Of a stretch of 64,000 nucleotides of DNA, positions 7,540 to 34,280 are shown one piece after another; position 1 is the first letter of the stretch; each line of letters starts with the position of its first letter. Position numbers and translations under genes: made by a program. The notes beneath the pieces were generated by a model, which saw only the letters and a list, made by a program, of their open reading frames with translations, did not search any database and was not told the origin of the DNA. Source of the DNA: Thermodesulfobacteriota bacterium (GTDB taxonomy: Bacteria; Desulfobacterota; BSN033; UBA1163); the NCBI GenBank assembly GCA_047519465.1, contig JAPVTA010000227.1:5687-69686 (forward strand). The letters are read 5' to 3'.

Positions 7540-8241
7540 ATGATCGCCTTTTCTGCGGGACTTCTCTCCTTCGTTTCGCCTTGCGTCCTCCCCCTGGTTC
7601 CCTCTTATATCACCTACATCACGGGGGTTTCCTTCAAGGACCTTACGGATACCGAAGCCCGGTCGAGGCTGAGATGGGCTGCTCTTTTCCATTCCTTCTT
7701 CTTCATCATCGGATTTTCAACGATCTTTATCCTGATGGGCACCTCGGCCTCCTATCTCGGCCAATTATTTGCTCAGTATCAATACTGGATTATGAAAGGA
7801 GGGGGGGTACTGATCATCCTCCTGGGTATCCATTTTACAGGAATCATCAGTATTCCTTTTCTGCAGATTGAGAAAAGATTTGAGGTGAGGAGGAAGCCTT
7901 TGGGCTATGCAGGTTCCTTTCTCGTGGGAGTGGTTTTCGCAGCCGGGTGGACGCCCTGTATCGGACCGATCCTCTCGACGATCCTCATCTATGCGAGCAC
8001 GTCAAAAAGCGTGACGACGGGAGTTCTGCTGCTCACTTACTATTCGATAGGCCTGGGAATTCCATTTCTTCTCTCCTCCCTGGCATTCAATTCATTCCTC
8101 TCTGCCTTCGATAAAATAAAACGATACATGAGAGTCATCAGCGTTGCGAGCGGCCTTTTCCTGGTTGGCATCGGGATTCTCTTCCTGACCGATACGTTTA
8201 AAGAGATCAATTCCTACCTGAATGCGCTCACTAATCCCTAG
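7540..8241 (+). CDS. ccdA: Cytochrome c-type biogenesis / thiol-disulfide transmembrane protein CcdA (DsbD core)
   Basis: 'FSAGLLSFVSPCVLPLVPSYI' and second Cys motif 'AAGWTPCIGPIL'; multi-pass membrane protein. The ORF-track start at 7486 overlaps a TATAAT box (7491-7496), so the downstream Met with GGGA RBS was preferred. Confidence 0.75.
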   Translation: MIAFSAGLLSFVSPCVLPLVPSYITYITGVSFKDLTDTEARSRLRWAALFHSFFFIIGFSTIFILMGTSASYLGQLFAQYQYWIMKGGGVLIILLGIHFTGIISIPFLQIEKRFEVRRKPLGYAGSFLVGVVFAAGWTPCIGPILSTILIYASTSKSVTTGVLLLTYYSIGLGIPFLLSSLAFNSFLSAFDKIKRYMRVISVASGLFLVGIGILFLTDTFKEINSYLNALTNP

Positions 8242-8299
8242 TCAAACTAGAAATCCGAATATCGGGCGAAGCGTTCGTCTCGGACAAATCTGAAAAAAA

Positions 8300-8460
8300 A
8301 TTTGGTGGTTATCGGGATATCAGGTTATCAGGTAGTGGATATCAGGACATCCGGGCATCAGGGTTAAGAATTTTTTGTCTCCTGTCCTGCTCTCCTGATC
8401 CTTGGTATCCTGCATCCTGATTTCCTGGTACCCTGATGACCTCCACGTGCATTTCGGATT
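8300..8460. repeat. Long imperfect hairpin built from ATCAGG repeats (left arm) and CCTGAT repeats (right arm); probable bidirectional terminator between convergent ccdA and lptG
   Basis: Left arm 'GGATATCAGGTTATCAGGTAGTGGATATCAGGACATCCGGGCATCAGGG'. Right arm 'CCTGATCCTTGGTATCCTGCATCCTGATTTCCTGGTACCCTGATGACC'. Confidence 0.4.
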
Positions 8461-8470
8461 TTCCCGGATA

Positions 8471-9565
8471 TCATTGTCTAATGCTCAACAACGTTAGAAT
8501 TCCAGCCAGCCCAAAAAGGACCGTAGGGATCCAACAAGCAAGAAAAGGGGAGAGAACCCCCGATTTTCCGAAGGAAACAAAGACATAAAAAATGACGCCG
8601 TAGGCAAAGCCGATCATCACGCTGCTCCCTATACTCAAGGCTACCCCGCCGGACCGGCTGGTTTTCAACGCAAAGGGGATACCGATCAGGACCATGATCA
8701 GGTTTAAGAGAGGCGTAGAAAGCTTGGAATAAAGATCAACAAGATATCGGGTTGCATCGTAGCCTGAGGCTTGGATCTTCTGGATGTAGGTCCAGAGTTC
8801 TCCATAACTCATCTCTTCGGAGTTTCGGCCGATTCTTCGCAAGGACTCCCAGTCCTCCCCCAAATTGAATTCCGTTTTGTCAAAAGGAGTCACCTGGGTG
8901 GAGCCGTCCTCTCGAAACTCGCGTATGGTTCCGTCATAGAACCACCATCCGCCTTTCACCCATTTGACCTGGGGGGCATCAACGCGTTTGACACATCGAA
9001 AGTGGTCATCAAATTCATAAAGGGTGAAACCGCTCAGGACCTTGCTGTATGGGTCGAGCAGTTGGATGTTCAAGATGCGGTTCTCGCTGCGATACCATAT
9101 TTTATAATTCTTAAAAAAAATGGCCGGCTTTTCTTTTCGAACCCGAACATCCAGGAGATATCGGGTTTTTTGGTAGGTGACAGGAACGAGGTATTCGTTC
9201 CCCAGGAAGGAAAAGAAACTGATGATCAGAGCAATGATAAGTAATGGGAACGTAATCCGGTAAAGGCTGACGCCCCCTGCTTTCATGGCTGTGATCTCAC
9301 TATTTCGGGAGAAGCTGCTGAGAGTGAGAAGGGTCGCCAGTAGGATCGCGTAAGGAAGGGTCCATTGGAAAATGACCTCCGGGATCTTGTATAGGAGATA
9401 GACAAAGATCAAGTGGAATGGAGCGTTATACTGGCTGAAGAGGTTCATTTTTTGGAAAAACAGAACGACGACATAAATGAGGACCAGGCTGCTCAGACTC
9501 AAGCCAAATATCTTCAGAAACTCGCGGACGACATAGCGATGGAGTGTCCTATAATGATCAAACAT
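8471..9565 (-). CDS. lptG: LPS export ABC permease, YjgP/YjgQ family (LptG-like)
   Basis: Six-TM YjgP/YjgQ topology with a periplasmic beta-jellyroll insert. Second of two tandem paralogues; assignment of LptF vs LptG is by gene order only. Confidence 0.65.
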   Translation of the reverse strand: MFDHYRTLHRYVVREFLKIFGLSLSSLVLIYVVVLFFQKMNLFSQYNAPFHLIFVYLLYKIPEVIFQWTLPYAILLATLLTLSSFSRNSEITAMKAGGVSLYRITFPLLIIALIISFFSFLGNEYLVPVTYQKTRYLLDVRVRKEKPAIFFKNYKIWYRSENRILNIQLLDPYSKVLSGFTLYEFDDHFRCVKRVDAPQVKWVKGGWWFYDGTIREFREDGSTQVTPFDKTEFNLGEDWESLRRIGRNSEEMSYGELWTYIQKIQASGYDATRYLVDLYSKLSTPLLNLIMVLIGIPFALKTSRSGGVALSIGSSVMIGFAYGVIFYVFVSFGKSGVLSPFLACWIPTVLFGLAGILTLLSIRQ

Positions 9566-10739
9566 CGTTAGAAAACTTTCTCCATTTTTTCTGCAACAAA
9601 TCGAGCCCTTCGATCACCCAAACAGCCGGCCTGAAGGGCGACTCATTCGCCGCCTTGATCAGGAGGTAGATACCCAGCCCCCCGAATATAAACGTAGGGG
9701 ACCAACCTGCCAGGAGCGCGGGCACCGCCCTTCTGACAGCGAGCATTTCGAAGGCAATGAGGGAAATATAGTAAGCCAACAAGATGAGAATACTGAAAAC
9801 AAACCCATACGACCTTCCGGAACGCCGGGGTTGAATTCCCAGTGGTACTCCAATGAGACCGAAAACGATACAAGCAAAGGGAATGGCACGCCGTTTGTGG
9901 AGTTCCACCTCTTGAGTAGTAGTATCCTCCCCTTGCGCCTTCATCTTTTCTATCTTTTTCTTAATCTCATCGATCGACATCTCATGTTCCTTAAACTTCC
10001 TTTCAATGTCAGCGATGTTCTTCCCAAATTCGATTTTTAGATCGTAGGCGTCAAATTGCATCCATTGATACGCCTTTGTCCGGGGTTCAAACCGATGGAT
10101 ATTTCCGTTGAGCAGCTTCAATACCACTCCTTGGGACGAGGGATTAGTGATGAGAAAACCTTCTTGAGCAAAGATGGTATTGACGTTCTCCTTGTCTCTT
10201 TCATCGTAAATTAAAATGCCCTCCATTTTTTTCCCTTGAATGGGAACTTTGTCCACATAGACCACGAGGCCCTTGAAACTATCGTTGAAAATGCGCTCCT
10301 TGACTTCAACGTCCGGCTTAGATTGTGCGATAAACGAGAGCGTCGATACGAAGCCACGGTTGCCCCATGGGAGGCCATAAAAGACCAAAAAACTCGTAAT
10401 AAGATAGGCACTAACGGAAAAAATCGCGATCGGCATATAGAGTTGATAGAGACTTATTCCGGAAGCTTTGAAGGCAGTGACTTCGCTATCTCCTGACAGC
10501 CGGCCAAGGGTGAGGAGGATTCCGAGAAGGACGGCTGTGGGGATAGTGAAGGTGAGAAAAGAAGGCGAGATGAACAGGAGGAGCTTTAGGATGACCGTGA
10601 CATTTCCACCCCTATTGATAATCAATTCGATCAGCTTGAAGATCTTATCCATCAGGAGGATAATCGTGAAGGTCATCAGGCCTATGAAAAAAATGGGGAG
10701 AATTTCCTTCCAGACGTAAAGATAAAGGGTTTTTTTCAT
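9558..10739 (-). CDS. lptF: LPS export ABC permease, YjgP/YjgQ family (LptF-like)
   Basis: 'MKKTLYLYVWKEILPIFFIGLMTFTIILL' is a typical LptF/G N-terminus. Overlaps the downstream paralogue by 8 nt. Confidence 0.65.
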   Translation of the reverse strand: MKKTLYLYVWKEILPIFFIGLMTFTIILLMDKIFKLIELIINRGGNVTVILKLLLFISPSFLTFTIPTAVLLGILLTLGRLSGDSEVTAFKASGISLYQLYMPIAIFSVSAYLITSFLVFYGLPWGNRGFVSTLSFIAQSKPDVEVKERIFNDSFKGLVVYVDKVPIQGKKMEGILIYDERDKENVNTIFAQEGFLITNPSSQGVVLKLLNGNIHRFEPRTKAYQWMQFDAYDLKIEFGKNIADIERKFKEHEMSIDEIKKKIEKMKAQGEDTTTQEVELHKRRAIPFACIVFGLIGVPLGIQPRRSGRSYGFVFSILILLAYYISLIAFEMLAVRRAVPALLAGWSPTFIFGGLGIYLLIKAANESPFRPAVWVIEGLDLLQKKWRKFSNDV

Positions 10740-10885: not shown

Positions 10886-10946
<61 letters not shown>

Positions 10947-10962
<16 letters not shown>

Positions 10963-12071
10963 AACACATCAAGGGGTTGCGAACCGGCAGCCCCTTTCTC
11001 ATTTCCGGAACTGTCCAAAAAGTGTCCATCCCAGAAGGAAAGAAAGGCCGAACCGTCGCTTCGCGTCAGATTTGGAATGAATTTCGCGTACCGCTTAAAG
11101 AGCATCTCCGTCGAAGCGTGCCCCATCATCTGAGCCACCCAGTTCGGATTCTCACCCGATGAAAGCATGAGCGTTGCAAAAGTGTGACGGATCTGATACA
11201 TCGTCCGATCTCTCAGGCCGGCTTTCTTCAAGGTAGGGTACCACACCCTGTTTCTCAGGTTGTCGTTGTCCAAAGGTGTGGCGTTCTTTGTCACGAAGAC
11301 ATATTCTCCCAAAAAGAAGGTCTTTGCCTTTTGATCGAGAAGGACTTTTTTGACGGGAGGAAGCATGTCGATCTCCCGGTAGCTCGACTCGGTCTTGGGG
11401 CTTGATTCGATCCCGTGGACACGGCCTTCGCGGACGCTGATCTTTCCTAAGATGAGGTCGACGTTTTTCCACTTAAGGGCGATCAACTCGTTGGGTCTCA
11501 TTCCAGTTAGAAAAGCTGTGACAAAGTAGTTGAAAGAGTCGCGGTCAACCTTCCTGAGGAACCTCTTGACCTCGTCAAAACTGAGCGGGAAGATCTCCGG
11601 CTTGGGCTCCTTGAGCCTCTTGACGAACTGACAGGGGTTCTCCTTGATTTCCTTTCTCCGGTAGGCCGTTTTGAAGAGGGTTTTGAGAGGAACCATGATG
11701 TTGTTGATCCGTTTGGGGCTGAGATGGCCAAGGGTTGAAATAAAGCGCTCGATGTCTGCCTCCATGATCCTTGAGAGAACCATCTCGCCGAAGTAGGGAT
11801 TGAGGTAACTTCTGAAGATAGAGAGATCATCCCGCAGGCTAGAAGATTTCACACGAAGCTTTCTCTGTTTGAGCCACTCCTCGGCGTGATCCTTGAACCG
11901 GATCTTTCTTTCTTCGAAGATTCCGAGAAACTCGCCCTTGGCCTTCTTGACCTCAAGATCTTTCAAGACCAGAAAAGCAAGCTCCTTCGAGGGGCCGACC
12001 TTTTTTCGTCGCCTCTTTCCGTTGATCCGAAGATCGATAAACCAGTGTCTTCCGTGTTTGAAGATTCCCAT
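10947..12071 (-). CDS. int: Tyrosine site-specific integrase (phage integrase family)
   Basis: Catalytic region 'IRHTFATLMLSSGENPNWVAQMMGHASTEMLFKRYAKF' (HxxR ... Y); N-terminal arm-binding/SAM-like domain. The 3' end overlaps the tRNA/att core. Confidence 0.85.
11012..11030 (+). promoter_or_regulatory. 19-bp motif TGTCCAAAAAGTGTCCATC (candidate recombinase/Xis arm-type site), left copy
   Basis: 18 of 19 bases identical to 33547-33565 (TGTCCATAAAGTGTCCATC), in the same orientation, each just inside an island end. Confidence 0.35.
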
Positions 12072-12189: not shown

Positions 12190-12414
12190 TTACAAATTGG
12201 CGGACGGCTTTCTACTTGGACGTCCTTCAAAGGAGAATCGCTTTAACCACGCTTCGATTGATGAGGGTCGAAAGCGAATGCAGCGACCCAGCTTTAGAAA
12301 TGGGATGCGCCGCTCGTGGACCCACTTTCTTATGGTCGATTTCTTGACTCCGATAAGATCGCTTAATCCAGGGACGTTGAGAAGTTTTTCTGCTGGTGAT
12401 GGTTCAGTTTTCAT
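12190..12414 (-). CDS. AlpA/excisionase-family HTH DNA-binding protein
   Basis: 74 aa with 'LIGVKKSTIRKWVHERRIPFLKLGRCIRF' (AlpA/Xis-type winged HTH), directly upstream of and co-directional with int. Confidence 0.7.
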   Translation of the reverse strand: MKTEPSPAEKLLNVPGLSDLIGVKKSTIRKWVHERRIPFLKLGRCIRFRPSSIEAWLKRFSFEGRPSRKPSANL

Positions 12415-12494
12415 CTTGACTCCCTCGGTTTCTTTGATTATGTAAGATCATACTCCTGGGGGATAATTTTTGGGAAGGAGAGTAGGAAGCTAGG

Positions 12495-13364
12495 ATGGCA
12501 AAAAACTATGGGGAGAAAATGGCTATTTCCGGTGGGCTTATTGTGACAGAAGAGAGGTCGGTGGAAACACTCTTATCTCTGGGAGAGGAAGCTTTCCTTA
12601 TTAGACTGACCATGTCTCCTTATCTCTTTGAGTTTGAGAAAGTCAAAGAAAGGGTGAAAGAGATCAGCGACGACTGGAAAAGGAGGATTGAATTAAAGAA
12701 ATCGAGGAAAAGTTCCTGGGAAAACGTCTTATACCTTGTTCATTTGTTTCCACGGTCATTGGATCTTCGTGAATTTGGCTGGCTCAAGGAGAAGTATTTC
12801 AACATTCTGATGAGAAGACAATGGGACAGTGAATTGGATAAATCTTACTGGGAGACTCTCGAAAAGGTAAGGAAAGATTTTACCCCTACTAAGCCCAAGA
12901 CTCCAGAGAAGAAACTGTTGATAGCAAGAAAGTTCGAATATTACCATAATGCGTGGGGGAGGGGAGAAATATCCAAGAGATCCAGAGAGCTTTTGGAACT
13001 TTATCATTCCTCTGGTACGGAAGAAGAGATTCTGAAGACTCAGTTTTTAAGGAAAATAAAGATTTCACGGGAAATTATGGAGCGGGAATTGGGGAGACTG
13101 GATAGGATATGTGGTGAAGAGATTAGAGATGAGCAGGATTACCTATTCCTGCCGATAATCATCCAAAATGAACTAAGTCTTATCGAAGATAAGAGTGAGA
13201 GGGAACAAGGCCAAAAATTCTGGATCAAGATATGGAAGCCGATATCCAAGAAAGCAGGCAAGCTTAAGCCAGCCTTCATTATGGAGGTGGTCAAGGAGAC
13301 AGGGCTGAGCGAGGAAACAATAAGAAAACTACTTAGAAAAGCAAAGAAAGAACCGATATACTGA
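12495..13364 (+). CDS. Hypothetical Lys/Glu-rich protein with C-terminal HTH-like segment (possible island regulator/replication initiator)
   Basis: No recognisable catalytic motif. C-terminus 'ETGLSEETIRKLLRKAKK' resembles a DNA-binding helix-turn-helix. Followed by an iteron-like/AT-rich region. Confidence 0.35.
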   Translation: MAKNYGEKMAISGGLIVTEERSVETLLSLGEEAFLIRLTMSPYLFEFEKVKERVKEISDDWKRRIELKKSRKSSWENVLYLVHLFPRSLDLREFGWLKEKYFNILMRRQWDSELDKSYWETLEKVRKDFTPTKPKTPEKKLLIARKFEYYHNAWGRGEISKRSRELLELYHSSGTEEEILKTQFLRKIKISREIMERELGRLDRICGEEIRDEQDYLFLPIIIQNELSLIEDKSEREQGQKFWIKIWKPISKKAGKLKPAFIMEVVKETGLSEETIRKLLRKAKKEPIY

Positions 13365-13962
13365 TCAAAACAATGGATGCGTTTGAGTGTTTCCTGTGAC
13401 TTTTGATCCTCGGATATTAGCCAAAACATGTAAAAGGGTCTTCTCCCGTTTCTTTTTCTCTCGGGTAAGTATGATGTTCATCTAATCATTTAATCAAATG
13501 TATGGAGAGGTGGTTGAAAAGATGGAAAATTGAAGAAAATGCATGGAGAAATGAGAAGATTTCCTTGATTCTTCTTATGGATGTATTCAAGATCATCATT
13601 AGAATCTTCTAAATCCTTTAAACAGAATGTCAAGGGTCCTTCTCTTCATAAAGACAAGGCTTCTTAAGGGCATGGTAAGACCCTTTAAAAGATATGGAAC
13701 CTTCAAAGGCCATTTGACAACCTTTCAAGAAGGGATTGAATGGTTTTCTTGACCCCCAAGACCATGTTTTTTCATCACCTTACTTTAAGAAGGTGAAGGT
13801 TACCTCAATACATGCTCCATATTAAGTCCACATGTGTACATGTAAACATCAATGAGTGGTGGAATAAGCAAAAGATTGTCCTCGGTGTTCTTTAGAGATA
13901 TGCCTAATCCCCCGTAAGCACAGCCTCAGGCAAAGGCTTAAGTAAAAGCAAGAGCTTAAACA

Positions 13963-14033
13963 AGCCCTTGAGAAGTCCTTGAAAAGCTCTTGAGAAATCC
14001 TTGAAAAGTCTTTGAGAAGCCCTTAAGAACCTT
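13963..14033. repeat. About six tandem 11-12-bp repeats (consensus CTTGARAAGYC)
   Basis: 'CCCTTGAGAAGT CCTTGAAAAGCT CTTGAGAAATC CTTGAAAAGTC TTTGAGAAGCC CTTAAGAACC' read directly. Lies inside a ~900-bp AT-rich non-coding region. Confidence 0.5.
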
Positions 14034-14109
14034 TTAAAGAGTATTTGTTATCGATTGAATCAAGAGAACTGATTAATCCTCATGACAATCCAAGCAATCT
14101 CCTCATAAA

Positions 14110-14138
14110 TCCACAATAAAATGTTACTTTATTGTGGA
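14110..14138. promoter_or_regulatory. Perfect 11-bp-stem palindrome TCCACAATAAA-ATGTTAC-TTTATTGTGGA
   Basis: Exact inverted repeat with a 7-nt loop, 160 bp upstream of the helicase gene. No clear T-tract, so it is more operator-like than terminator-like. Confidence 0.45.
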
Positions 14139-14299
14139 TTTGAGCTTGCTTTCTATTGATAGAAGCCTTCTCCACCATTTTGCCTAAGAAATGGGCAGAT
14201 TTAACTTTCTAAAATTAATCGAAAAATACAAAGGTAATTGTAAAAGAAGTGACACCGGTTTAGAATTTTATATCTCCTTTAACAAGAAAAAGGTAAAAA

Positions 14300-16465
14300 A
14301 TGTCCGTCATTCACGGTCTTCTCGAAAAGATTTCTTTCCGTAACGAAGAAAATGACTTTGTGGTGGCAAAACTTCGAGAAAAAGAGAAGAAGGATCTGAC
14401 CACCATTGTCGGTAATCTTTCCGGCATCAACCCCGGTGAATCCCTTAAACTGACAGGTCAATGGATACACAATAAGAGATTCGGTGAGCAATTCCAGGTC
14501 GAGAGCTTCGAAGTCACGGTACCGGCTACCCTCTATGGGATTCAGAAATATCTTGCCTCCGGATTGATTCAAGGCATTGGCCCGATCATGTCAGAGAGGA
14601 TTGTCGAAAAGTTCGGGCTTCATACCTTGCAGGTGATCGAAAAGAAACCTGAAAGGCTATCCGAGGTGGAAGGCATCGGTCCTAAACGGATCTCCATGAT
14701 CAGAAAAGCCTGGGTGGAGCAGAAAGAGATCAAAGAGATCATGATCTTTCTGCAGGGCCATGGAGTAGGCGCTGCCTATTCTGCCAAGATCTACAAACAA
14801 TACGGAGATCAGTCGATTGAAATGGTCAAAGAGAATCCTTATCGTTTAGCCAACGACATATACGGGATTGGTTTCGTCACTGCAGACAAGATCGCTCAGA
14901 ATCTTGGAATCGATCGCAATTCCCTGATCCGGGCCAAGGTAGGTCTCACCTATGTCCTGAATCGGCTGACCGAAGATGGCCATGTTTATTATCCCGAAAC
15001 TCGATTGATTCACAAGGCAAGGGAGATCCTCCATGTGGATGAAGAAATCATCCTCCTGACCGTAAAGGAGCTATGCAAAGAGAAGGAGCTCTTTCTGGAA
15101 GACCTCGATCTTGAGGGTGATCTCAGGGCCGCCTATCTTGCCCCCTTCTATGTGGCAGAGACGGGGGTGGCTCAGAGATTAATCCATCTGAAGGAATCTC
15201 CTTCAAGCATCCGGCCCATCCATCCGGAAAAGGCGATCGAATGGGTGCAGCAGAGGCTGAACATCAAACTTGCCGAAAGACAGGAAGAGGCAATTCTTCT
15301 GGCCGCCACTTCAAAGGTGTTGATTATCACTGGCGGCCCTGGAACCGGAAAGACAACGATCATCACAGCCATATTAAGAATCTTCCAGCAATTAAAGCTG
15401 AAGATCCTTCTCGCCGCTCCAACGGGAAGGGCAGCCAAGAGAATGAATGAGGCCACGGGCTGGGAGGCAAAGACCATTCATCGCCTCCTCGAATACTCTC
15501 CCCATAAGGGTGATTTCAAGAAAGACCAGGAAGATCCTCTTGAGGCGGATGTGGTCATCATCGATGAGGCCTCCATGGTCGACACCCTCTTAATGTACCA
15601 TCTCCTGAAAGCCATTCCTTCCCATGCCCACCTGATCCTGGTAGGAGACGTCGATCAACTCCCATCGGTCGGTCCTGGAAATGTCCTGAAGGATATCATC
15701 CGATCAGAAAAGTTTACCGTAGTGAGGCTCTCCGAGATCTTTCGCCAGGCCCAGGAGAGTATGATCGTAGTCAACGCACACAAAGTCAATAAAGGTGAGA
15801 TCCCCGTTCTAAAGGAGATTGACCAACCCGAAAAAACCGACTTTCAATTCATCCAGGAAGAAGATCCGGAGAAGATCCTTCAAAATATCCTGGACCTCTG
15901 CAGCGAGAAGATACCCAGGCAATTCAAGTTTCATCCATTCAGGGAGATCCAGGTCCTGACACCCATGCACAAGGGAACCATTGGTGTCGCCAATCTCAAC
16001 ATCGAGTTACAGAAGAGACTGAACCCCGGTCAGCCGGGCATCACCCACGGAGCCTGGAATTTCAGATCAGGGGATAAGGTGATGCAGATCGTTAACAATT
16101 ATGATAAGGATGTCTTTAACGGGGATATCGGAAGGATCTCAAAGATCGATCCGGAGGAGAGAGAGGTAGTCATCGAATTCGATGGGAGACTGGTCCCTTA
16201 TGACTATTCTGATCTCGATGAAGTTGTGCTGGCCTATGCCATATCCGTCCATAAATCCCAGGGGAGCGAGTACCCGGTCGTGATTCTTCCGGTGGTCACC
16301 CAGCACTATATGCTTCTCCAGAGAAACCTGATCTACACGGGAATCACCCGAGCAAAGAAACTGGTCGTCCTGATCGGAACGAAGAAGGCCCTGGCCATCG
16401 CCATCGGGAATAACAAACCCCAACGAAGGTACACGCTTCTCTCAGAGAGGCTGGCCGCGTCATGA
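14300..16465 (+). CDS. RecD2-like SF1B ATP-dependent DNA helicase (RecD/TraA family) with N-terminal HhH domain
   Basis: Walker A 'GGPGTGKTT', 'LLAAPTGRAAKRM', Walker B 'VVIIDEASMVD', 'LVGDVDQLPSVGPGNVL', C-terminal 'YAISVHKSQGSEYPVVILP' and HhH 'GIGPKRISMI'; 721 aa. Confidence 0.85.
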   Translation: MSVIHGLLEKISFRNEENDFVVAKLREKEKKDLTTIVGNLSGINPGESLKLTGQWIHNKRFGEQFQVESFEVTVPATLYGIQKYLASGLIQGIGPIMSERIVEKFGLHTLQVIEKKPERLSEVEGIGPKRISMIRKAWVEQKEIKEIMIFLQGHGVGAAYSAKIYKQYGDQSIEMVKENPYRLANDIYGIGFVTADKIAQNLGIDRNSLIRAKVGLTYVLNRLTEDGHVYYPETRLIHKAREILHVDEEIILLTVKELCKEKELFLEDLDLEGDLRAAYLAPFYVAETGVAQRLIHLKESPSSIRPIHPEKAIEWVQQRLNIKLAERQEEAILLAATSKVLIITGGPGTGKTTIITAILRIFQQLKLKILLAAPTGRAAKRMNEATGWEAKTIHRLLEYSPHKGDFKKDQEDPLEADVVIIDEASMVDTLLMYHLLKAIPSHAHLILVGDVDQLPSVGPGNVLKDIIRSEKFTVVRLSEIFRQAQESMIVVNAHKVNKGEIPVLKEIDQPEKTDFQFIQEEDPEKILQNILDLCSEKIPRQFKFHPFREIQVLTPMHKGTIGVANLNIELQKRLNPGQPGITHGAWNFRSGDKVMQIVNNYDKDVFNGDIGRISKIDPEEREVVIEFDGRLVPYDYSDLDEVVLAYAISVHKSQGSEYPVVILPVVTQHYMLLQRNLIYTGITRAKKLVVLIGTKKALAIAIGNNKPQRRYTLLSERLAAS

Positions 16466-17370
16466 CTGAGCTGAAGAACGAATTCTCCTGGTCGAAATCC
16501 AGGGATGAGCTGTTTAAGACCTGCCCCAGGCAGTACTGGTTTGCCTATTATGGCTACTGGAACGGATGGCTTGAGAACGCTCCAGAGAGAAGCCGGCAGA
16601 TCTATGTTCTGAAGAACCTCAAGAACAGGCATATGTGGGTGGGGGAAAGGGTCCATGAATGCATTCAAAGATCCCTTAATAATATCCGAAGAGGGATCAA
16701 GGTCCTTTCAGTAGATGAAATTGTGTCCATTACTCTCGACCAAATGAGAGCGGAGTTTCGTTCTTCAAAGTCGAAGAATTATTGGAAGAATCCCAAATCG
16801 TGTGCCTTGTTTGAGCATGAATATGAGGTGGAAGTGAGTGATGAGGAATGGAAAGAGGCTGTGAGTAATGTGGAGACCTGTCTAAAAAATTTCTACGCCT
16901 CGGATATTTATGATGGTTTAAAGTCCCATCGTAAGGAGGGGTGGCTTGAAGTGGAAGAATTCTCTTCCTTTTATCTGGATCATATAAAAATCAATTTAGT
17001 CATCGACTGCGCCATAAAAGAGGGCGAGGGTGTCTATATCTACGATTGGAAGACAGGAAAAAGCCTCTCAGAAGACCTCTCCATCCAATTAGGCTGTTAT
17101 GCCCTTTACGCTATGGAGAAATGGAATCTTTCTCCTGAATCGCTGAGCATTATTGAATATAACCTCTCCATTGATAAGTCCAACTGGTTTTCAGTGAGCC
17201 AGGAAGAAATGAAAGGCATCAAGGGTTACATCAACGGAAGCATCAAAGACATGCAGTCCCTTCTCATCGATGCCTCGAATAATCTCCCCATGGAAGAAGA
17301 CCGGTTCAGTAAGATAGAAGATGAACACATCATCTCCAGATGTAACTATAAAAAAGTCTGCAGAAAATAA
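16462..17370 (+). CDS. PD-(D/E)XK nuclease, Cas4/RecB-like family
   Basis: 'VIDCAIKEGEGVYIYDWKTGK' (D..E..hhDhK core) and 'QLGCYALY' (RecB-family QxxxY motif). Cysteines near both termini ('TCPRQYW', 'CNYKKVC'). Start overlaps the helicase stop (ATGA). Confidence 0.65.
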   Translation: MTELKNEFSWSKSRDELFKTCPRQYWFAYYGYWNGWLENAPERSRQIYVLKNLKNRHMWVGERVHECIQRSLNNIRRGIKVLSVDEIVSITLDQMRAEFRSSKSKNYWKNPKSCALFEHEYEVEVSDEEWKEAVSNVETCLKNFYASDIYDGLKSHRKEGWLEVEEFSSFYLDHIKINLVIDCAIKEGEGVYIYDWKTGKSLSEDLSIQLGCYALYAMEKWNLSPESLSIIEYNLSIDKSNWFSVSQEEMKGIKGYINGSIKDMQSLLIDASNNLPMEEDRFSKIEDEHIISRCNYKKVCRK

Positions 17371-25466: not shown

Positions 25467-26021
25467 ATGGATGAGCTAAGAATCGGTAGAAAAATACGTC
25501 AGATTCGGCTTCAAAATAAGCTCACGCTCCTCGAGATTGCTCAAAAGACAGGTTTCACCAAAGGTTATCTTTCCTTGATTGAGCAGGGAAAGAAATCTCC
25601 CCCTATTGCCACACTGAGCAAAATTGCCAAGGCCATTCTTGTGGATATGGGGGCCTTTTTTGAACAGAAAAAGCCAGAAGATAGTATCCTAATAGTGAGG
25701 AAAGGGAAGAGGGAGGTTGTTGTCAGGGACGGGTCCATCTTTGGATACCAGTATGAGTCCATCGCTCCCACGAAAATGCGTAAGAAAATGGAACCTTTTA
25801 TCATTACCCTCCCATCTAAAAGCAAAGAGGAGAATCGATTTGATCATGAGGGAGAAGAGCTCTTTTATGTATTGGAGGGCAGGATTAATTTCTTCTACGG
25901 AGGTAAGAAATACTTTTTAGCGGAGGGAGATTGCATTTACTTCGATTCCAGTATTCCTCATCGGGGCGAGGGGGTTGGGAAAAAACCTGCAAGAGCTTTG
26001 GTCGTCATTTATACACCTTGA
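25467..26021 (+). CDS. XRE-family HTH transcriptional regulator with C-terminal cupin domain
   Basis: 'IRLQNKLTLLEIAQKTGFTKGYLSLIEQGKKSP' is an XRE HTH; C-terminal 'HEGEELFYVLEGRINFFYGGKKYFLAEGDCIYFDSSIPH' is a cupin. Confidence 0.75.
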   Translation: MDELRIGRKIRQIRLQNKLTLLEIAQKTGFTKGYLSLIEQGKKSPPIATLSKIAKAILVDMGAFFEQKKPEDSILIVRKGKREVVVRDGSIFGYQYESIAPTKMRKKMEPFIITLPSKSKEENRFDHEGEELFYVLEGRINFFYGGKKYFLAEGDCIYFDSSIPHRGEGVGKKPARALVVIYTP

Positions 26022-26073
26022 GAGACCTGTGTACGGAAATGGGAGAATCAACTTTAAAAAAGGAGGTGCAGTC

Positions 26074-27294
26074 ATGAAGAAAAAGGAGGTTGGATTTATT
26101 TTAGGGGTATGCGGGATAGGACTCATGTTGGTAGGGTTCATTTGCGGAGGGCCGGTCATGGCCCAAGATACCATCAAGATTGGAGCAGTGCTACCTCTCA
26201 GCAAAGCCGCCTTTGCTCAGGCTGGAGAGGAGCAGAGGCGGGGATTGCTAATGGCATTGGAGGAGATTAATCAGACAGGAGGCGTTCTGGGGAAAAAGTT
26301 GGAAGTGATTATCGAAGATGACACTGGAGAGCCCTCTGTCGGTATTGCCGCCGCAGAGAAACTCCTTACCCGGGATAAGGTTGTGGCGTTGATTGGAGGC
26401 TATTCCAGCACCATTACGTTCGCACAGCTCAACGCGATTCAACGGCTGGAGCCCTTCGTCGCATGGGTAGGGGCTTCCTCGACCAAGGTGGAGCACGAGT
26501 TCGGACCAAAGCGATGGTTTTTTCACTATCATCCATGGGATTATCATCGTCAATCGACCATCCGGGATTTTCTGCTCACAATTTCACCGAGGCCCAAGAC
26601 TGTTGCCGTAGCCTATGAGGACGGGATCTATGGTACGACTAGCCGTGACTATGTAGTGAAATATTTAAAGGAGAAGGGGTTCGAGATTGTCTTCGACGAA
26701 CGTTTCAAGAGCGGTTCCTCCGATTTTACGCCAATGCTCACCAAGATTAAGAAGGCCAATCCAGATGTCTTCTATTGGGTAGCTTATGCTGGCGATACCA
26801 CCCTGATCATGAAACAGGCAAAGGAGATTGATTTAAACCTCAAACTCTTTCTTTCGGTAGCAATCAATTTCCCGCAATACAAAGAATCCCTTGGGGCAAC
26901 TGGAGACTTTGTGGCGGGTGTTGATGTGTGGATTCCGGGTATGAAACTTCCGGAGACGATTAAGTGGATGGAGAAGTTCAAGAAGGCCTACCCAGGACGG
27001 ACCCCTGAGTATTGGGCCCCTCTTGCCTATACCAATTTGATGACCGTCGTGGATGCCATCAAGAGGGCAGGGTCGACAGAGAAGGGAAAACTAATCGCCG
27101 CAATGGAGAAAACCGACTATAACTCACCTTTGGGAAGAATGACCTTCAAAAAGAGCGAGGAAGGTGGGCTGCATCAGGCTATTGATGAACAGATCATTAC
27201 CCAATGGCAGGCGGGAGTTTCACAAGTGGTATATCCTGCCAATAAAGCGACTGGTAAATTGATCTATCCAACACCGAACTGGAAAAATCGCTAG
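26074..27294 (+). CDS. ABC transporter periplasmic substrate-binding protein (LivK/Peripla_BP_6 family)
   Basis: Signal peptide 'MKKKEVGFILGVCGIGLMLVGFICGGPVMA', 'IKIGAVLPLSKAAFAQAG' and 'VALIGGYSSTI'. Confidence 0.8.
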   Translation: MKKKEVGFILGVCGIGLMLVGFICGGPVMAQDTIKIGAVLPLSKAAFAQAGEEQRRGLLMALEEINQTGGVLGKKLEVIIEDDTGEPSVGIAAAEKLLTRDKVVALIGGYSSTITFAQLNAIQRLEPFVAWVGASSTKVEHEFGPKRWFFHYHPWDYHRQSTIRDFLLTISPRPKTVAVAYEDGIYGTTSRDYVVKYLKEKGFEIVFDERFKSGSSDFTPMLTKIKKANPDVFYWVAYAGDTTLIMKQAKEIDLNLKLFLSVAINFPQYKESLGATGDFVAGVDVWIPGMKLPETIKWMEKFKKAYPGRTPEYWAPLAYTNLMTVVDAIKRAGSTEKGKLIAAMEKTDYNSPLGRMTFKKSEEGGLHQAIDEQIITQWQAGVSQVVYPANKATGKLIYPTPNWKNR

Positions 27295-27384
27295 AAGGTT
27301 GCGCTCGTTGAATAAATTCTAACTCTACCTGATTCCCCCAACTGTTAGGGAGAATAACGGGTTAGGAACGGAAAAGAGTCTATT

Positions 27385-28263
27385 ATGGACTGGGCTAGTT
27401 TCTTTCAGAGCCTTGCGAATGGAATTCTGATCGCCGGACTTTATGCGGCAGTAACTTTGGGTTTAACACTTGTCCTTGGAGTTATGGGAATTGTCAATTT
27501 TGCCCATGGTGAACTGGTCATGCTGGGGGCCTATAGCACCTTTTGGTTATTTACCCTATTGCGAATTGATCCAATGCTGTCGATCGCCATGAGTGGCCTG
27601 ATCCTGTTCATCATTGGACTCCCGATCTACCGTTTCACCATCCGACCGATCCTGAAGGATCCTCCGCTCAATCAACTCCTCCTCACCCTTGGCATCTCCA
27701 TCTTTCTTCAGAACTTAGCAATGATCCTCTGGAAGACGGATTCGAGGTCAGTTATCACCTCCTATTCTGGTACGTCACTCCACCTCGAGATGGTTAACAT
27801 AGGGTTGACACGTTTGATCACTTTCTTGATTGCTGTGGTGTTAACGGTCTTCCTTGTCTTCTTTCTCTACAAGGCAAGGCCAGGAAGGGCGATGCGAGCG
27901 GTCAGTGAGAACAATACTGCTTCTTGGCTGATCGGCATTAATGTTCAAAAGACCTATCTTTTGGCTTTTGGGGTGGCCTCAGGTCTGGCGGGGGCCTCTG
28001 GTGCCCTGGTTAGTACTATCATGTATACTTTCCCAATGGTGGGTTTCAAATTAAGTCTGAAGGCCTTCTGTATCCTGATCCTTGGGGGATTAGGTAATAT
28101 TCCGGGCGCTTTATTTGGAAGCCTGATACTAGGGTTGACCGAATCTTTTGTTGGGACCTATGTTCCAGAAGGATCAGGATGGGCTGAAGGGATCTCTTTT
28201 ATGCTTATTATGATTATTCTCGTTATTAAACCTACTGGTCTGGCTGGAACTCGGCGGGAGTAG
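27385..28263 (+). CDS. Branched-chain-amino-acid-type ABC transporter permease (LivH-like)
   Basis: Multi-TM protein with a LivH-like pattern ('NFAHGELVMLGAY'). Confidence 0.8.
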   Translation: MDWASFFQSLANGILIAGLYAAVTLGLTLVLGVMGIVNFAHGELVMLGAYSTFWLFTLLRIDPMLSIAMSGLILFIIGLPIYRFTIRPILKDPPLNQLLLTLGISIFLQNLAMILWKTDSRSVITSYSGTSLHLEMVNIGLTRLITFLIAVVLTVFLVFFLYKARPGRAMRAVSENNTASWLIGINVQKTYLLAFGVASGLAGASGALVSTIMYTFPMVGFKLSLKAFCILILGGLGNIPGALFGSLILGLTESFVGTYVPEGSGWAEGISFMLIMIILVIKPTGLAGTRRE

Positions 28264-28268
28264 AAGGG

Positions 28269-29213
28269 ATGAACCGTCCATTCTCTTGGAAGACAGTTAT
28301 TCTTCTGATAGCCCTGGCCATTTTTCTGATCTTCTATCCCAAGCTGGTTGATTCCTATTTTCTCCACCTCACTGTAGCAGCCATCTTGGCGATGATTATG
28401 GCAAGCAGTTGGGATATTCTAGCAAGGACAGGACAGGTCTCGGTAGGTCAGGCCGGGCTTTTTGGGATAGGCGCTTATACAGCTGCCCTTCTGTACCAAT
28501 GGGTTCACATTCCCCCAGTGCTAGGGATGCTAGCTGGGGCAATCCTGGCTATGATCGTTGCTGTTTTCCTTGGATATCTTACCTTACGTCTCCGTGGGAT
28601 CTACTTCGCCATTACGACCATTGCGTTTGCCGAAGCCTTATCTGTGATCTGGCTAATGACCCCAGGGGTTACAGGAGGAGCGATGGGCGTTTCCACTCCT
28701 CCTCTTTTTAATGGCAATCGGGAGCACGCCTACTATCTCATTTTGCTTATCCTTGCTCTTGTTATTTTTACAGTCTGGTTGATTGAATCATCGAGGCTTA
28801 ATTTTGCTTTTACGGCGATTCGTGAGAATGAAGAGGTAGCCAATGTTATGGGCATCAATCCGACCCGGTATAAAGTTCTGGCCTTCATAATCAGCGCTTT
28901 TTTTACGGGATTTGCCGGAGGATTTTACAGTCACTATAACACCTACATCATTCCATACGAGGTATTTGGCCTGGGAATTTCTATCGCCTGTCTCGTCATA
29001 CCGATCTTTGGAGGTCTCTATACCATTGCTGGACCAATCATCGGTACAATCTTGATCAAGGCGATCGAAGAATATTTGAGGGTTACCTTTTCTTATGGAC
29101 ATCAAATTGCTTACGGTCTGATTCTGGTGGTGGTCGTATTATTTATGCCAGAAGGGGTGCTCGGACTTTGGAAGAAAAGGATTCTTCCGTTCTTTGGCCG
29201 TGTCCGGCAATAA
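28269..29213 (+). CDS. Branched-chain-amino-acid-type ABC transporter permease (LivM-like)
   Basis: Multi-TM protein with 'GQVSVGQAGLFGIGAYTAALL', typical of LivM. Confidence 0.8.
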   Translation: MNRPFSWKTVILLIALAIFLIFYPKLVDSYFLHLTVAAILAMIMASSWDILARTGQVSVGQAGLFGIGAYTAALLYQWVHIPPVLGMLAGAILAMIVAVFLGYLTLRLRGIYFAITTIAFAEALSVIWLMTPGVTGGAMGVSTPPLFNGNREHAYYLILLILALVIFTVWLIESSRLNFAFTAIRENEEVANVMGINPTRYKVLAFIISAFFTGFAGGFYSHYNTYIIPYEVFGLGISIACLVIPIFGGLYTIAGPIIGTILIKAIEEYLRVTFSYGHQIAYGLILVVVVLFMPEGVLGLWKKRILPFFGRVRQ

Positions 29214-29262
29214 CGGAAATAAGAGGAACTTTGTTGCTATTGAGAGGGAACGTTCGCGGACA

Positions 29263-30021
29263 ATGGAGAACATATCTTTACTTCAGGTAAAAAAGCTCAC
29301 CAAACATTTTGGTGGCCTTGCTGCAGTTCAGAATGTCAGTTTTGAGATTCGTCGTGGAGAGATTGTGAGCCTGATTGGCCCTAATGGTGCGGGCAAGACA
29401 ACAATCTTCAATCTTATCTCAGGGGTCTATGCCCCGGATTCGGGAGAAATTCTGCTCGACAATGAAAACCTTTTAGGCCGAAGGCCCTTTGAGGTCTGCC
29501 AGAAGGGAATCGGGCGAACTTTCCAAATTATGCAGCCCTTTCTACACATGACAGTTCTCGAAAATGTTATGACCAGTGGCTTATTCGGGAGAGTGCCGAA
29601 GATCTCTATGAGTCAAACAGAAGAGGAGAGCATAGAACTCTGCCTACTCGTGGGGTTGGGTGATAAACGAAAGGCCCTCCCAAGGAATCTTACCGTGGCA
29701 GACCAGAAGAGAATCGAAATTGCTCGGGCCCTTGCCGTCAAACCTAAACTCCTTTTGCTCGATGAAGTAATGTCCGGGCTTACTCCCATCGAAACTGGTG
29801 AGGCAATTAAGTTGGTTCGTCGACTGAGAGAAATTGGGACAACGATCTTTTTGATCGAACATGTGATGAAGGTCGTTATGGACATTTCGGATCGGGTCAT
29901 TGTCCTTCATCATGGAGAAAAGATTTCAGAGGGAACGTCTACAGAAGTGGTAAATGATCCAAAAGTAATCGAAGCCTATTTGGGAGAGCATGTAGATGAG
30001 TCAGGGGAGGCATCGTGCTAG
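29263..30021 (+). CDS. ABC transporter ATP-binding protein (LivG-like)
   Basis: Walker A 'GPNGAGKTT', signature 'LTVADQKRIEIARAL', Walker B 'LLLLDEVMSG'. Confidence 0.8.
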   Translation: MENISLLQVKKLTKHFGGLAAVQNVSFEIRRGEIVSLIGPNGAGKTTIFNLISGVYAPDSGEILLDNENLLGRRPFEVCQKGIGRTFQIMQPFLHMTVLENVMTSGLFGRVPKISMSQTEEESIELCLLVGLGDKRKALPRNLTVADQKRIEIARALAVKPKLLLLDEVMSGLTPIETGEAIKLVRRLREIGTTIFLIEHVMKVVMDISDRVIVLHHGEKISEGTSTEVVNDPKVIEAYLGEHVDESGEASC

Positions 30022-30722
30022 TTTTAGTAGAGATTGATGTCTATTATGGGAACATTCAAGCCCTATGGCAAGTGAGCCTAAGTGTAAAAGAGGGAGAAAT
30101 GATCGGGATTGTCGGATCGAATGGCGCCGGAAAATCGACGATCCTTCGAACAATCTCAGGGCTGATTACCCCCAAGAGAGGGAGTATTGAGTTCGACTCA
30201 AAACGGATTGACTCTCTTAGCCCCGACGAGATTGTCCGTCTTGGAATCTCCATGGTCCCTGAAGGGAGAGAGCTTTTCCCGAGAATGAGCGTCCTTGAAA
30301 ACCTTGAACTGGGGGCGGCTTATATCAATAGGGCCTACACTCAAACAAAGGAGTCTTTAGAGTGGGTCCATTCTCTTTTCCCTATTCTTCAGGAAAGATC
30401 GAAGCAACTTGCAGGAACCCTTAGTGGCGGGGAGCAACAGATGGTTGCTATTGGAAGGGCCCTGATGTCTCGACCTAAGATTCTTATGCTCGATGAACCA
30501 TCTTTAGGATTAGCCCCCCTTATGGTCACCGAAGTGTTTAAAACAACCGCCAAAGTCAGTCATGAGGGAGTAACGATCCTTTTGGTCGAGCAAAATGTAA
30601 GGCAGAGTCTAAAGATGGCACACCGTGCATATGTCCTTGAGAATGGTCGAGTCGTTATGGAAGGGATGGGAAGGGACCTGATGATCAATAAGCATGTGAA
30701 GGAAGCCTACTTAGGACTATAA
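30015..30722 (+). CDS. ABC transporter ATP-binding protein (LivF-like)
   Basis: 'GSNGAGKST', 'LSGGEQQMVAIGRAL' and 'ILMLDEPS'. Confidence 0.8.
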   Translation: MLVLVEIDVYYGNIQALWQVSLSVKEGEMIGIVGSNGAGKSTILRTISGLITPKRGSIEFDSKRIDSLSPDEIVRLGISMVPEGRELFPRMSVLENLELGAAYINRAYTQTKESLEWVHSLFPILQERSKQLAGTLSGGEQQMVAIGRALMSRPKILMLDEPSLGLAPLMVTEVFKTTAKVSHEGVTILLVEQNVRQSLKMAHRAYVLENGRVVMEGMGRDLMINKHVKEAYLGL

Positions 30723-30750
30723 TTCTTTTTATCTTTTGAGGAGGTTTGCA

Positions 30751-32019: not shown

Positions 32020-32026
32020 GAAACAA

Positions 32027-33565: not shown

Positions 33566-33707
33566 GGGCAGTAAAATTGGTATCTTTTGGTCACAAGTGA
33601 GTCACTTTTTTAAATCAATTGTTAAGGGGTTGTTTAATTGTGAAATCGACAGATTACCTTTGATTTTTGAGGCTTAGGCTCAGATTTCATGGAAGATCAG
33701 AGGAGCA

Positions 33708-33752
33708 CTCATAACCCGAAGGTCGCTAGTTCAAATCTAGCCCCCGCTACCA
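33708..33752 (+). repeat. attR: 45-bp direct repeat of the tRNA-fMet 3' half, from the anticodon loop to CCA
   Basis: Identical to 10918-10962. The next ~20 bp (A-CA-TCAAGGGGTTGCG) also resemble the sequence following the genuine tRNA. Confidence 0.8.
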
Positions 33753-33773: not shown

Positions 33774-34280
33774 TTATGCGTAACCCTTTTTTTTGGAACT
33801 GCTACTGCTTTTGCTACTGCCATTTTTTGCCACCTCCCTGGTCCGGGCAGGTAACGCCCCAGCAAGGAGGCTCGCCTGCTTCCGCAGAAACTCCTGGTCG
33901 TCCCCGAAAAGGTGACCGTAAACATCCAGAGTAAAAGCCACGGAAGAATGCCCCATTTGAAACTGGCTGCCCCAGACCGTGCGCCGCACAGACAACTGTC
34001 TTGTCGCGGGTTGAAAATCGGGCCACTGCAAGCCCCACAATTCACCGGCCCGTACCCCGGTCATGATCGCCGTCCGAAAAGCCGTCTGATAATGCTTCTC
34101 CGTATTGTCGACCAATTGACTTAATTCGGCCGGCGTTAGAATATCAATCTCATGGTGACGGTTCCTGGGCCGCTGCAATTCCGCAGCCGGATCTGTCTTG
34201 AGATAACCCCATCGCGTTGCCACCCGGAACATCATCTTGAGAAGTGCAATCTGGTTGATAGCCGTCTCGGGCGCGGCCAC
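33774..34280 (-). pseudogene. Integrase remnant (tyrosine recombinase C-terminal fragment with internal deletion)
   Basis: Contains 'AFRTAIMTGVRAGELWGLQWPDF' (start of the catalytic domain) joined almost directly to 'MGHSSVAFTLDVYGHLFG' (the terminal Tyr region). The HxxR-containing middle is missing. It occupies the same position relative to attR as int does to attL. Confidence 0.55.

Follow-up and report, generated by a model that had tools for sequence, protein, structure and literature searches.

An orphan helix-turn-helix protein and a conserved, repeat-rich spacer in the probable backbone of a tRNA-integrating island family

Anatomy of the locus

The subject of this study is an orphan protein of 289 aa, here called X, and the repeat-rich non-coding spacer that follows its gene. 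Both lie in a 64,000-nucleotide stretch of contig JAPVTA010000227.1 from a Thermodesulfobacteriota bacterium (hereafter the window; positions refer to this whole stretch unless a related locus is named), within a 22.8-kb island bounded by a 46-nt direct repeat (10917-10962 and 33707-33752). The left copy forms the last 46 nt of a tRNA-Met (CAT) gene (10886-10962, + strand; ARAGORN and Rfam), and the right copy (33707-33752, + strand), identified by alignment with the left one, corresponds to 46 nt of the 3′ half of this tRNA. Inside the left border are a tyrosine integrase gene, int (10947-12071, − strand; Pfam Phage_integrase and Phage_int_SAM_3), and alpA, which encodes a 74-aa AlpA/Xis-type HTH_17 protein (12190-12414, − strand; Pfam HTH_17 2e-12, PHROG excisionase/regulator). 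They are followed by the X gene (12495-13364, + strand; supported by the list of open reading frames (ORFs), a structure model and homologue searches), the spacer (13365-14299), and a helicase gene, recD2, with a nuclease gene behind it (14300-17370, + strand).

A sequence-only reading of this region had described a 22.8-kb island without structural or packaging genes, with int and alpA upstream of a Lys/Glu-rich 289-aa protein, approximately 900 bp of AT-rich non-coding DNA and a helicase as the next gene. The gene positions and the island limits are confirmed by our analysis, the latter by the tRNA-Met repeat, and no structural or packaging genes were found between the two repeat copies. Scans with Pfam and PHROGs detected no primase, Rep, relaxase, partition, capsid or terminase genes among the island ORFs, which also lack type IV secretion system (T4SS) genes and domains of ParA/ParM NTPases or centromere-binding proteins. 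The non-coding DNA measures 935 bp, has a GC content of 35.9% compared with 47.8% for the window, and holds no ORF longer than 47 aa.

Related islands and the conserved backbone

For comparison, about a dozen distinct loci encoding X relatives were collected from metagenomic sequence. All loci that reach far enough upstream have an integrase gene on the opposite strand, usually followed by an HTH_17 gene and then by the X gene pointing away from them, and the order int(−)/alpA(−)/X(+) recurs in approximately 12 islands that occupy different tRNA genes and carry unrelated cargo. The insertion sites include tRNA-Met (L010), tRNA-Arg (L004 and L011) and tRNA-Leu (L005 and L014), and the downstream cargo comprises MFS and TRAP transporters (L001), acyl-CoA metabolism genes (L004), an MNT/HepT toxin-antitoxin pair (L010), an insertion sequence element (L014), a group II intron (L048) or an SNF2 helicase (L005). 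Copies of int with 85-90% identity are present in L006, L008, L009 and L010. On the best reading of these comparisons, the DNA at 12.4-14.3 kb would form a backbone conserved throughout a small and hitherto undescribed family of tRNA-integrating islands in Thermodesulfobacteriota-like metagenomic genomes, a family that seems to work most like mobilisable islands with an int/alpA core.

Several relatives have been rearranged. In L004 the X gene is split by a frameshift (7654-8672), in L010 (107-1103) a deletion took alpA, most of int and the 5′ end of X, and in L048 a group II intron reverse transcriptase (RVT_1 + GIIM, 1514-2761) lies 170 bp past the X homologue, where other islands have the repeat-rich spacer.

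Protein X and its divergent promoter region

X contains 36 K, 40 E and 24 R, and 38% of its residues are charged, which agrees with the Lys/Glu-rich character noted previously. Public gene calls start the protein at the second ATG (12519, 281 aa). The first ATG (12495), which gives 289 aa, has a conserved GGAGAG suitably spaced in front of it and is itself conserved in L006 and L050. The family is very small: a search of 5.8 billion proteins gave 27 homologues at E ≤ 1e-3, and 30 were present in a set of 1.84 billion cluster representatives, all of them unnamed. Three short loci were the only occurrences in JGI metagenome contigs, and no relative was detected in 185,579 GTDB species representatives, among 72,556 plasmids and 50,697 phages, or in IMG/VR. 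X could not be assigned to any Pfam, PHROG, NCBIfam or PADLOC family, and no Pfam domain was found in the ten distant family members scanned; sequence and profile searches revealed no relative of solved structure in the PDB, and structure comparison of the model gave no fold match.

The AlphaFold2 model, built on a 24-sequence alignment (pLDDT 78, pTM 0.47), is entirely helical, with 15 helices, of which those at 257-269 and 273-285 form a helix-turn-helix (HTH) right at the C terminus. The recognition helix of this HTH is nearly invariant across the family, and 15 of the 24 family members show weak matches to Sigma70_r4 (Pfam), all of them below the Pfam thresholds. The C-terminal HTH suggested by the sequence-only reading is therefore probable, and the model is consistent with X probably binding DNA through it. 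The best conserved stretch of X is a linker, F-TP-x-KP-KTPEKK (residues 129-141; 12879-12917), with several invariant residues in a segment predicted to be disordered (pLDDT < 50); since this is a conserved linear motif in disordered protein, it suggests a docking site for a partner protein.

The 80 bp between alpA and X (12415-12494), delineated by the six-island alignment and a promoter scan, make up a region of divergent promoters that ends in GGAGAG, the presumptive ribosome-binding site for X, and show 77% mean column identity with long invariant runs. A rightward promoter-like site (TTGACT-17-TATGTA) was read by eye and a leftward one (TTCCCA-18-TATGAT) came from the promoter scan, with the −10 elements of the X and alpA promoters lying back to back under a short inverted repeat, TGATT-N6-(G/A)ATCA. 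We infer that this DNA is a divergent switch with an operator.

A distant relative of X, P0041, is homologous to it by profile alignment (hhalign probability 97%, E 5.5e-11, 246 aligned columns). In its loci, L051 and L052, the minus strand carries int, AlpA, a Prim-Pol/PriCT_1 protein and a 575-aa protein in this order, and the X relative is transcribed divergently. The 575-aa protein of L051 has a weak match to the PHROG 'DNA primase' and a faint P-loop match, and between its gene and the Prim-Pol gene (2848-2949) there are three copies of AGGGGTTAC, a 46-bp spacer and three copies of GTAACCCCT (9-bp units in inverted sets), which make a candidate origin for that element. By its position, the X relative of L051 would be the divergent regulator of a replication/excision operon and is probably not the initiator there. 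Because L051 possesses replication genes and an iteron-like site of its own, we rank a regulatory role for X above an initiator role, bearing in mind that the homology between P0041 and X is remote and that function could differ.

The novel initiator role that had been suggested for the 289-aa protein fares poorly in this light. In its most explicit form, X would represent a new all-helical initiator family that binds the 11/22-bp repeats of the spacer and, together with host DnaA on conserved inverted ATCCACA sites, fires a minimal theta origin. Such an origin would allow an excised island without a primase or replicative helicase of its own to persist as a plasmid, and would make it a minimal replicative island in an uncultured anaerobe lineage. 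We consider it unlikely, given that no relatedness of X to any initiator, DnaA or primase was detectable by sequence, profile or fold searches, and that the L051 relative adjoins a separate Prim-Pol module.

Tandem repeats and dispersed palindromes in the spacer

Beginning approximately 590 bp past the 3′ end of X, a tandem array at 13951-14046 (TRF and repeat search) consists of six to seven 11-bp units (AAGYCCTTGAR), which may also be counted as three units of 22 bp, all in exact phase. For 13962-14029, TRF reported a period of 11 (6.2 copies, 73% matches, 0 indels), a period of 22 (2.9 copies, 85% matches, score 89) and a period of 33 (score 93), and the repeat search placed seven units in register across 13951-14046 at a spacing of exactly 11 bp; the earlier count of about six repeats of 11-12 bp is thus confirmed. 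The array is the top tandem repeat of the 64-kb window, where the runner-up scored 50. In 500 dinucleotide-preserving spacer shuffles the maximum was 66, and a score of 73 was never reached. Both the array and the palindrome described below are beyond chance.

Each 11-bp unit is itself a small palindrome, CTT-N3-AAG, and a motif count revealed dispersed palindromic sites of the CCTT-N(1-4)-AAGG type (CCTTTAAAAG, CCTTCAAAGG, CTTTCAAGAAGG and CTTTAAGAAGG) at 13682-13793. The spacer holds nine such sites, compared with a mean of 0.87 per 935 bp, which is the maximum of the whole window. Enrichment of the motif extends to L004, L006, L007 and L009, but L010, L001, L005 and L011 do not show it. The array unit of the window appears to be an expanded form of this motif. 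Outside the spacer, counts of the array unit and of the palindrome half-site in the window were at chance level, and the X promoter region (12415-12494) contained neither the repeat unit nor a half-unit, and no palindrome half-site above chance. The array is single, and no second iteron set flanking an AT-rich region was found.

Arrays of other kinds are present in the relatives: units of 12-13/24 bp in L004 (AAGCCCTTTAAGC; approximately 4-5 copies at 12-13 bp, 3.1 at 24 bp), arrays of 17/34 bp in L006, three 12-bp copies each in L009 and L014, and a weak array of five 11-bp copies in L001. The units and periods therefore differ between islands, while the X recognition helix hardly varies. Downstream of the window's array, a tract of approximately 32-33% GC with repeated AATCC motifs (14047-14106; GC profile and alignment) leads up to the palindrome, and GC falls further to 25-30% at 14190-14280, compared with 48% for the genome. 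No repeated AT-rich 13-mers were seen.

Much of this anatomy would suit an iteron-type oriV of the excised island similar to those of SGI1 and the PIMEs, with X as a new initiator or with an initiator supplied by the host (DnaA) or a helper. The three 22-bp (or six to seven 11-bp) repeats would then be iterons, the 60-bp tract of 32-33% GC the unwinding region, and the inverted ATCCACA sites together with TTCTCCACC the DnaA boxes. We hold such an SGI1-like origin to be possible but doubtful, and treat it as a close rival of a control region. Helical phasing that is exact and far beyond chance speaks for it, and arrays of variable period (12-13/24, 17/34 and 12 bp) beside a constant block would be what is expected of element-specific iterons next to host-factor sites. 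However, the array does not start immediately downstream of X, no half-iteron occurs at the X promoter, and an almost invariant recognition helix alongside dissimilar arrays means that protein and repeats do not co-vary.

Two promoter-like sites complete the spacer. Block B (13797-13880, − strand), which is common to L004 according to nhmmer, carries a leftward sigma-70-like promoter, TTTACA-16-TAATAT (13846 to 13819; L004 counterpart TTTACA-17-TAATAT at 9271-9243). The other site, TTGTAA-17-TAGAAT (14238-14266, + strand; promoter scan), points outward to recD2 and the cargo, begins approximately 40 bp past the end of the conserved block described next, and has an ortholog in L004 (TTGTAA-16-TAGAAT at 9863-9890). 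Neither of the two was found in L009 or L010.

A conserved block with an inverted repeat

Spacer alignments of six islands (the window, L004, L006, L007, L009 and L010) delimit a 115-bp conserved non-coding segment, block A (14085-14199). The repeat-rich spacer is thus a conserved backbone element across relatives rather than noise, and the relatives support the view that it acts in cis. Block A includes the palindrome IR1 (14107-14141; repeat search and alignments), whose perfect 14-nt arms (14107-14120 and 14128-14141) enclose a 7-nt loop; a perfect palindrome had been anticipated here, albeit with a shorter, 11-bp stem at 14110-14138. Its core, AATCCACAA-N15-YTGTGGA, keeps a fixed spacing in all six islands, and only the inner arms are conserved. 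Block A further contains a second small palindrome, TTCTATTGATAGAA (14151-14164), the invariant CACCATTTTGC and a weak hairpin (14179-14199), and its conservation ends sharply after GGCAG.

Each half of IR1 contains ATCCACA, which equals seven of nine DnaA-box positions. The sequence AAATCCACA occurs twice in inverted orientation, and the DnaA-box-like TTCTCCACC at 14168-14176 (in L009, TTATCCACC) is added to these; each of the three differs from the DnaA box by two mismatches and is conserved in relatives, and such matches are common window-wide (222 across 64 kb compared with 183 expected). Four matches to TTATCCACA (≤ 2 mismatches) fall within 103 bp (14074-14176). A scan of GTDB genomes with the IR1 pattern returned 32 chance matches, none with the rest of block A. 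By chance, the palindrome pattern scan also matched Lagierella regions L021, L034 and L036, which are rich in TGTGGATAA boxes and probably oriC; these regions are not relatives of block A, but their sequences illustrate that the IR1 half-site is DnaA-box-like.

Block A is 77-87% identical between islands, compared with 65-83% for the DNA of the X gene. In L004 the contrast is stronger, with 82% for block A, 65.5% for X DNA (approximately 50% for the protein) and 21% for the integrase, and block A remains 82-87% identical in the decayed islands L004 and L010. Favourable for an oriV are the cluster of four TTATCCACA-like sites, the third box of L009 and the fact that block A is better conserved than the proteins which the island encodes, as would be the case if a conserved host protein recognised it. 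By contrast, the abundance of two-mismatch DnaA-box matches in 64 kb and the persistence of block A in islands that are decayed and immobile are unfavourable.

The same pattern of conservation, 82-87% for block A beside an L004 integrase at 21% and an X at approximately 50%, would also fit constraint by an external conserved machine of another type. Block A could be a transfer site recognised by a helper, either an oriT mimic for a co-resident relaxase or a pac/cos-like site for a helper terminase. Relaxase, T4SS and packaging genes are all missing from the island, for all its int and alpA, so that any transfer would need a cis site that is read in trans; an oriT is usually built from an inverted repeat with conserved single-copy sequence after it, and oriT mimics are carried by PIMEs and mobilisable islands. 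Nevertheless, no known nic consensus was recognised by eye, the spacer had no DNA match among 72,556 plasmids, X had no protein match there or among 50,697 phages, and neither X nor block A was present in IMG/VR. Since the tandem arrays would also be left unexplained, we judge a transfer site improbable. A rolling-circle nick site was considered as well, on account of the likeness of TTGATA in block A to the nick core of pC194/phiX174; it was rejected because the resemblance is limited to a 6-mer, is not kept in L006 and is accompanied by no HUH protein.

A further reading sees in the spacer DNA that is decaying, or the source of a non-coding RNA or small protein, with the repeats as functionless slippage products. 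The higher-order periods of 22 and 33 bp indicate growth by duplication, the islands of the family are often decayed, block A folds better than its shuffles (z approximately −3.3), and a 32-aa minus-strand ORF (14080-14178) overlaps it. Yet block A is as conserved as coding DNA, and a structured RNA was rejected: at gathering score Rfam 15 matched only the tRNA in the window, without credible sub-threshold matches, RNAalifold found none of 27 predicted pairs to be compensatory (covariation term +1.1), and the good fold is only that of the DNA palindrome. The 32-aa ORF looked conserved in three islands but meets a stop after three codons in L004 and a frameshift in L010. A pseudogene remnant was likewise rejected, as tblastn searches of the spacer with the small genes following X in relatives and with the Prim-Pol and 575-aa proteins of L051 gave nothing credible. 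We regard decay, RNA or a small protein as improbable. Inspection revealed no sigma-54 promoter or intrinsic terminator in block A, the 'terminators' reported by the scan being without T runs. Taken together, the conservation of the inner arms only, the absence of covariation and of an Rfam match, and the broken ORF argue that block A behaves as a DNA site for proteins and not as an RNA or a gene.

Block A is missing near the X relatives of L001, L005, L011, L014 and L048. Because L001, L011 and L014 have an intact X gene with neither block A nor the CCTT-N-AAGG motifs downstream, X and the spacer appear to be separable modules.

The recD2 operon and the remaining cargo

The helicase is a canonical RecD2, with a TIGR01448 score of 948 bits (cut-off 500) and the Pfam domains OB_YrrC, HHH_RecD2, SH3_13 and UvrD_C_2, and it scores far below the TraA/TraI cut-offs; a protein at least 90% identical to it is labelled as Thermodesulfobacteriota. 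By these profile matches it is a RecD2 equivalog (SF1B) and not a replicative helicase of the DnaB, P4-alpha or SaPI-Rep type. Its gene (14300-16465) overlaps by 4 nt with that of a Cas4-like PD-(D/E)XK nuclease (16462-17370; Pfam and PADLOC), and the two look like an operon. PADLOC gave only generic matches for this pair (typeIV_RecD, PDC-S68 and Aga_Cas4-like_Nuc) and so no named defence system; it may be a repair module or a defence system of another type.

Full recD2 was found only in the window and in L047, which is an identical copy from a second assembly. In L004 (9911-10030), no more than the final 28 recD2 codons (82% identical) and the beginning of the nuclease gene remain behind the same promoter, the mark of an internal deletion, and recD2 is missing downstream of block A in L009 and L010. 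As the L004 remnant is the only trace among the other relatives, recD2 was tied to the spacer in one sub-lineage yet is dispensable, so that recD2 and the nuclease gene are cargo or accessory genes outside the family core. The helicase had been counted as part of a replicative layout, a role that does not hold for a repair-type RecD2 absent from most relatives. For an oriV, a backbone without a primase or replicative helicase, and with a repair-type SF1B RecD2 that is not conserved, is a further difficulty, as is the separate Prim-Pol module of the distant relative L051.

The remaining cargo comprises two proteins of unknown function, a DUF2846 protein, a DJ-1 family protein, a cyclase-TPR protein, a Cupin/HTH regulator, a Liv-type ABC transporter, HMG-CoA reductase and HMG-CoA lyase. 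At 25467-32941, the Cupin/HTH regulator, the complete Liv-type branched-chain amino-acid ABC transporter and the HMG-CoA reductase and lyase genes all run in one direction and look like a transferable catabolic or mevalonate-related module. Directly after the right repeat copy there is a decayed integrase fragment (33774-34280, − strand, 167 aa) with 28% identity to the island integrase over 97 aa, and the sequence immediately 3′ of both repeat copies is similar (TCAAGGGGTTGCG). The segment 33707-34280 looks like the remnant of a second island that was inserted in tandem at the same tRNA-Met site.

A putative control region

Among the readings considered, we favour, with a probability of a little under 40%, the one in which X controls the alpA-int switch and proteins bind the spacer as a control region that ends in an outward cargo promoter. 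The anatomy of the spacer, its non-randomness and conservation, the synteny of the backbone and the lack of coding capacity and RNA covariation are observed features. That X binds DNA, which protein would occupy which site, and that the output would be transcription rather than replication are suggestions drawn from them. A regulatory role for X is favoured because of the synteny in approximately 12 islands, the near-invariant alpA-X DNA, the weak but recurrent Sigma70_r4 matches, the divergent position of the P0041 gene, the PIME1 precedent and the lack of an initiator-like fold or family. That the repeat unit and the palindrome half-site do not exceed chance in the X promoter or elsewhere in the window counts on the same side.

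According to this model, X would be a DNA-binding regulator that combines a helical body with a C-terminal HTH resembling sigma-70 region 4. Transcribed divergently from the alpA-int operon, from promoters that overlap back to back, it would serve to set or to sense the switch for excision, as the divergent pair of alpA and luxR does in PIME1. Phased 11/22-bp repeats and CCTT-N-AAGG palindromes could align sites along a single face of the helix, where proteins would bind cooperatively or wrap the DNA. The inverted repeat of block A, with its fixed spacing, may be read by a dimeric factor that is probably encoded by the host or a helper, since block A is conserved across islands. Finally, the outward promoter at the end of the spacer would drive the following cargo, here recD2 and the nuclease gene. 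Block A lies 40-150 bp upstream of this promoter, which is conserved in the window and L004, and its persistence in the decayed islands L004 and L010 fits a site that matters for cargo expression.

Several observations weigh against a control region. A 0.9-kb spacer with six to seven phased repeats, an inverted repeat and AT-rich DNA has the classic look of an origin and is far more elaborate than most bacterial control regions. The centre of the palindrome lies approximately 115 bp upstream of the −35 element, far for a simple activator or repressor, and the outward promoter, conserved in the window and L004 only, is missing from L009 and L010. The Sigma70_r4 matches of the X family all fall short of the Pfam thresholds, and any model that has X acting on the spacer is made less convincing by the separability of the two.

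If the spacer is a control region, the backbone of int, alpA, X and block A would identify cargo-swapping islands in Thermodesulfobacteriota-like genomes and provide a concrete pair consisting of an orphan HTH protein and conserved DNA sites. If it is an origin, the family would count as a self-replicating integrative element of very small size, its initiator having no recognised fold, in a phylum whose mobile-element replication is little known. The practical gain under either reading would be modest and confined to a narrow lineage.

Comparison with known systems

Iteron plasmid origins, such as those of pSC101, P1, F and R6K, combine DnaA boxes, an AT-rich tract and at least three direct repeats spaced at approximately 22 bp. 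The spacer resembles them in its DnaA-box-like sites, its AT-rich tract and its at least three direct repeats approximately 22 bp apart, but there is no winged-helix Rep here, no inverted half-iterons at the X promoter and no partition or copy-control locus. In the parC centromere of plasmid R1, 11-bp iterons are bound by ParR. Its 11-bp direct repeats, arrayed so as to wrap a small DNA-binding protein and overlapping a promoter region, resemble the array of the window, although no gene for ParM/ParA or a ribbon-helix-helix ParR lies nearby.

Among integrative elements, SGI1 (Salmonella genomic island 1) offers a close comparison for the order of int, xis, a further gene and then direct repeats, DnaA-box-like sites and AT-rich DNA, which equals the experimentally proven rep-oriV order of SGI1 and the repA-oriV order of PIMEs and is a point in favour of an origin. 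The oriV of SGI1 comprises four 17-bp iterons, a DnaA box and AT-rich flanks; it follows rep directly, within approximately 255 bp, and its Rep is a recognisable RepA_C initiator (PMC7433901). Both are mobilisable, cargo-rich islands of the tRNA/trmE-integrated type without transfer machinery of their own (PMC7433901), in which a gene beside int/xis is followed by such a non-coding locus. However, X matches no initiator family or fold, and the repeats here are of 11/22 bp and start 590 bp after X.

In PIME1, excision needs both of the divergently oriented regulators, alpA and a LuxR-family HTH protein, and PIMEs, which are restricted to Pseudomonadota, carry repA, an iteron oriV, traJ/traI and an IncP-like oriT (bioRxiv 10.64898/2026.01.12.698999). 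The likeness to PIME1 extends to islands of approximately 22 kb with int, divergent regulators and large cargo and defence regions, and the X gene occupies the position of the divergent luxR. Unlike PIME1, the island has no repA or traJ/traI genes, and X is not a Pfam LuxR/GerE protein.

The sequence-only reading had proposed the layout of phage-inducible chromosomal islands (PICIs) and other replicative elements, and a possible satellite. The order does match those of SGI1 and the PIMEs, but the PICI gene modules are missing. In a PICI, the origin adjoins a pri-rep gene and consists of two sets of iterons with an AT-rich region between them, and packaging or interference genes or cos sites are carried as well (PMC6092414). 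Int and alpA, integration at a specific site (the 46-nt repeat in tRNA-Met) and repeats near a putative melting region are shared with them. In contrast, the island has no primase/Rep domain or pri-rep gene, no two-set origin, and no terS, capsid-remodelling, packaging or interference genes according to Pfam and PHROGs, which argues against a satellite. By its gene content, the island is neither a PICI nor a relative of the PIMEs or SGI1. What is new here is therefore best filed as a family of tRNA-integrating islands that appears to combine an orphan backbone protein with an unusually elaborate, conserved cis region.

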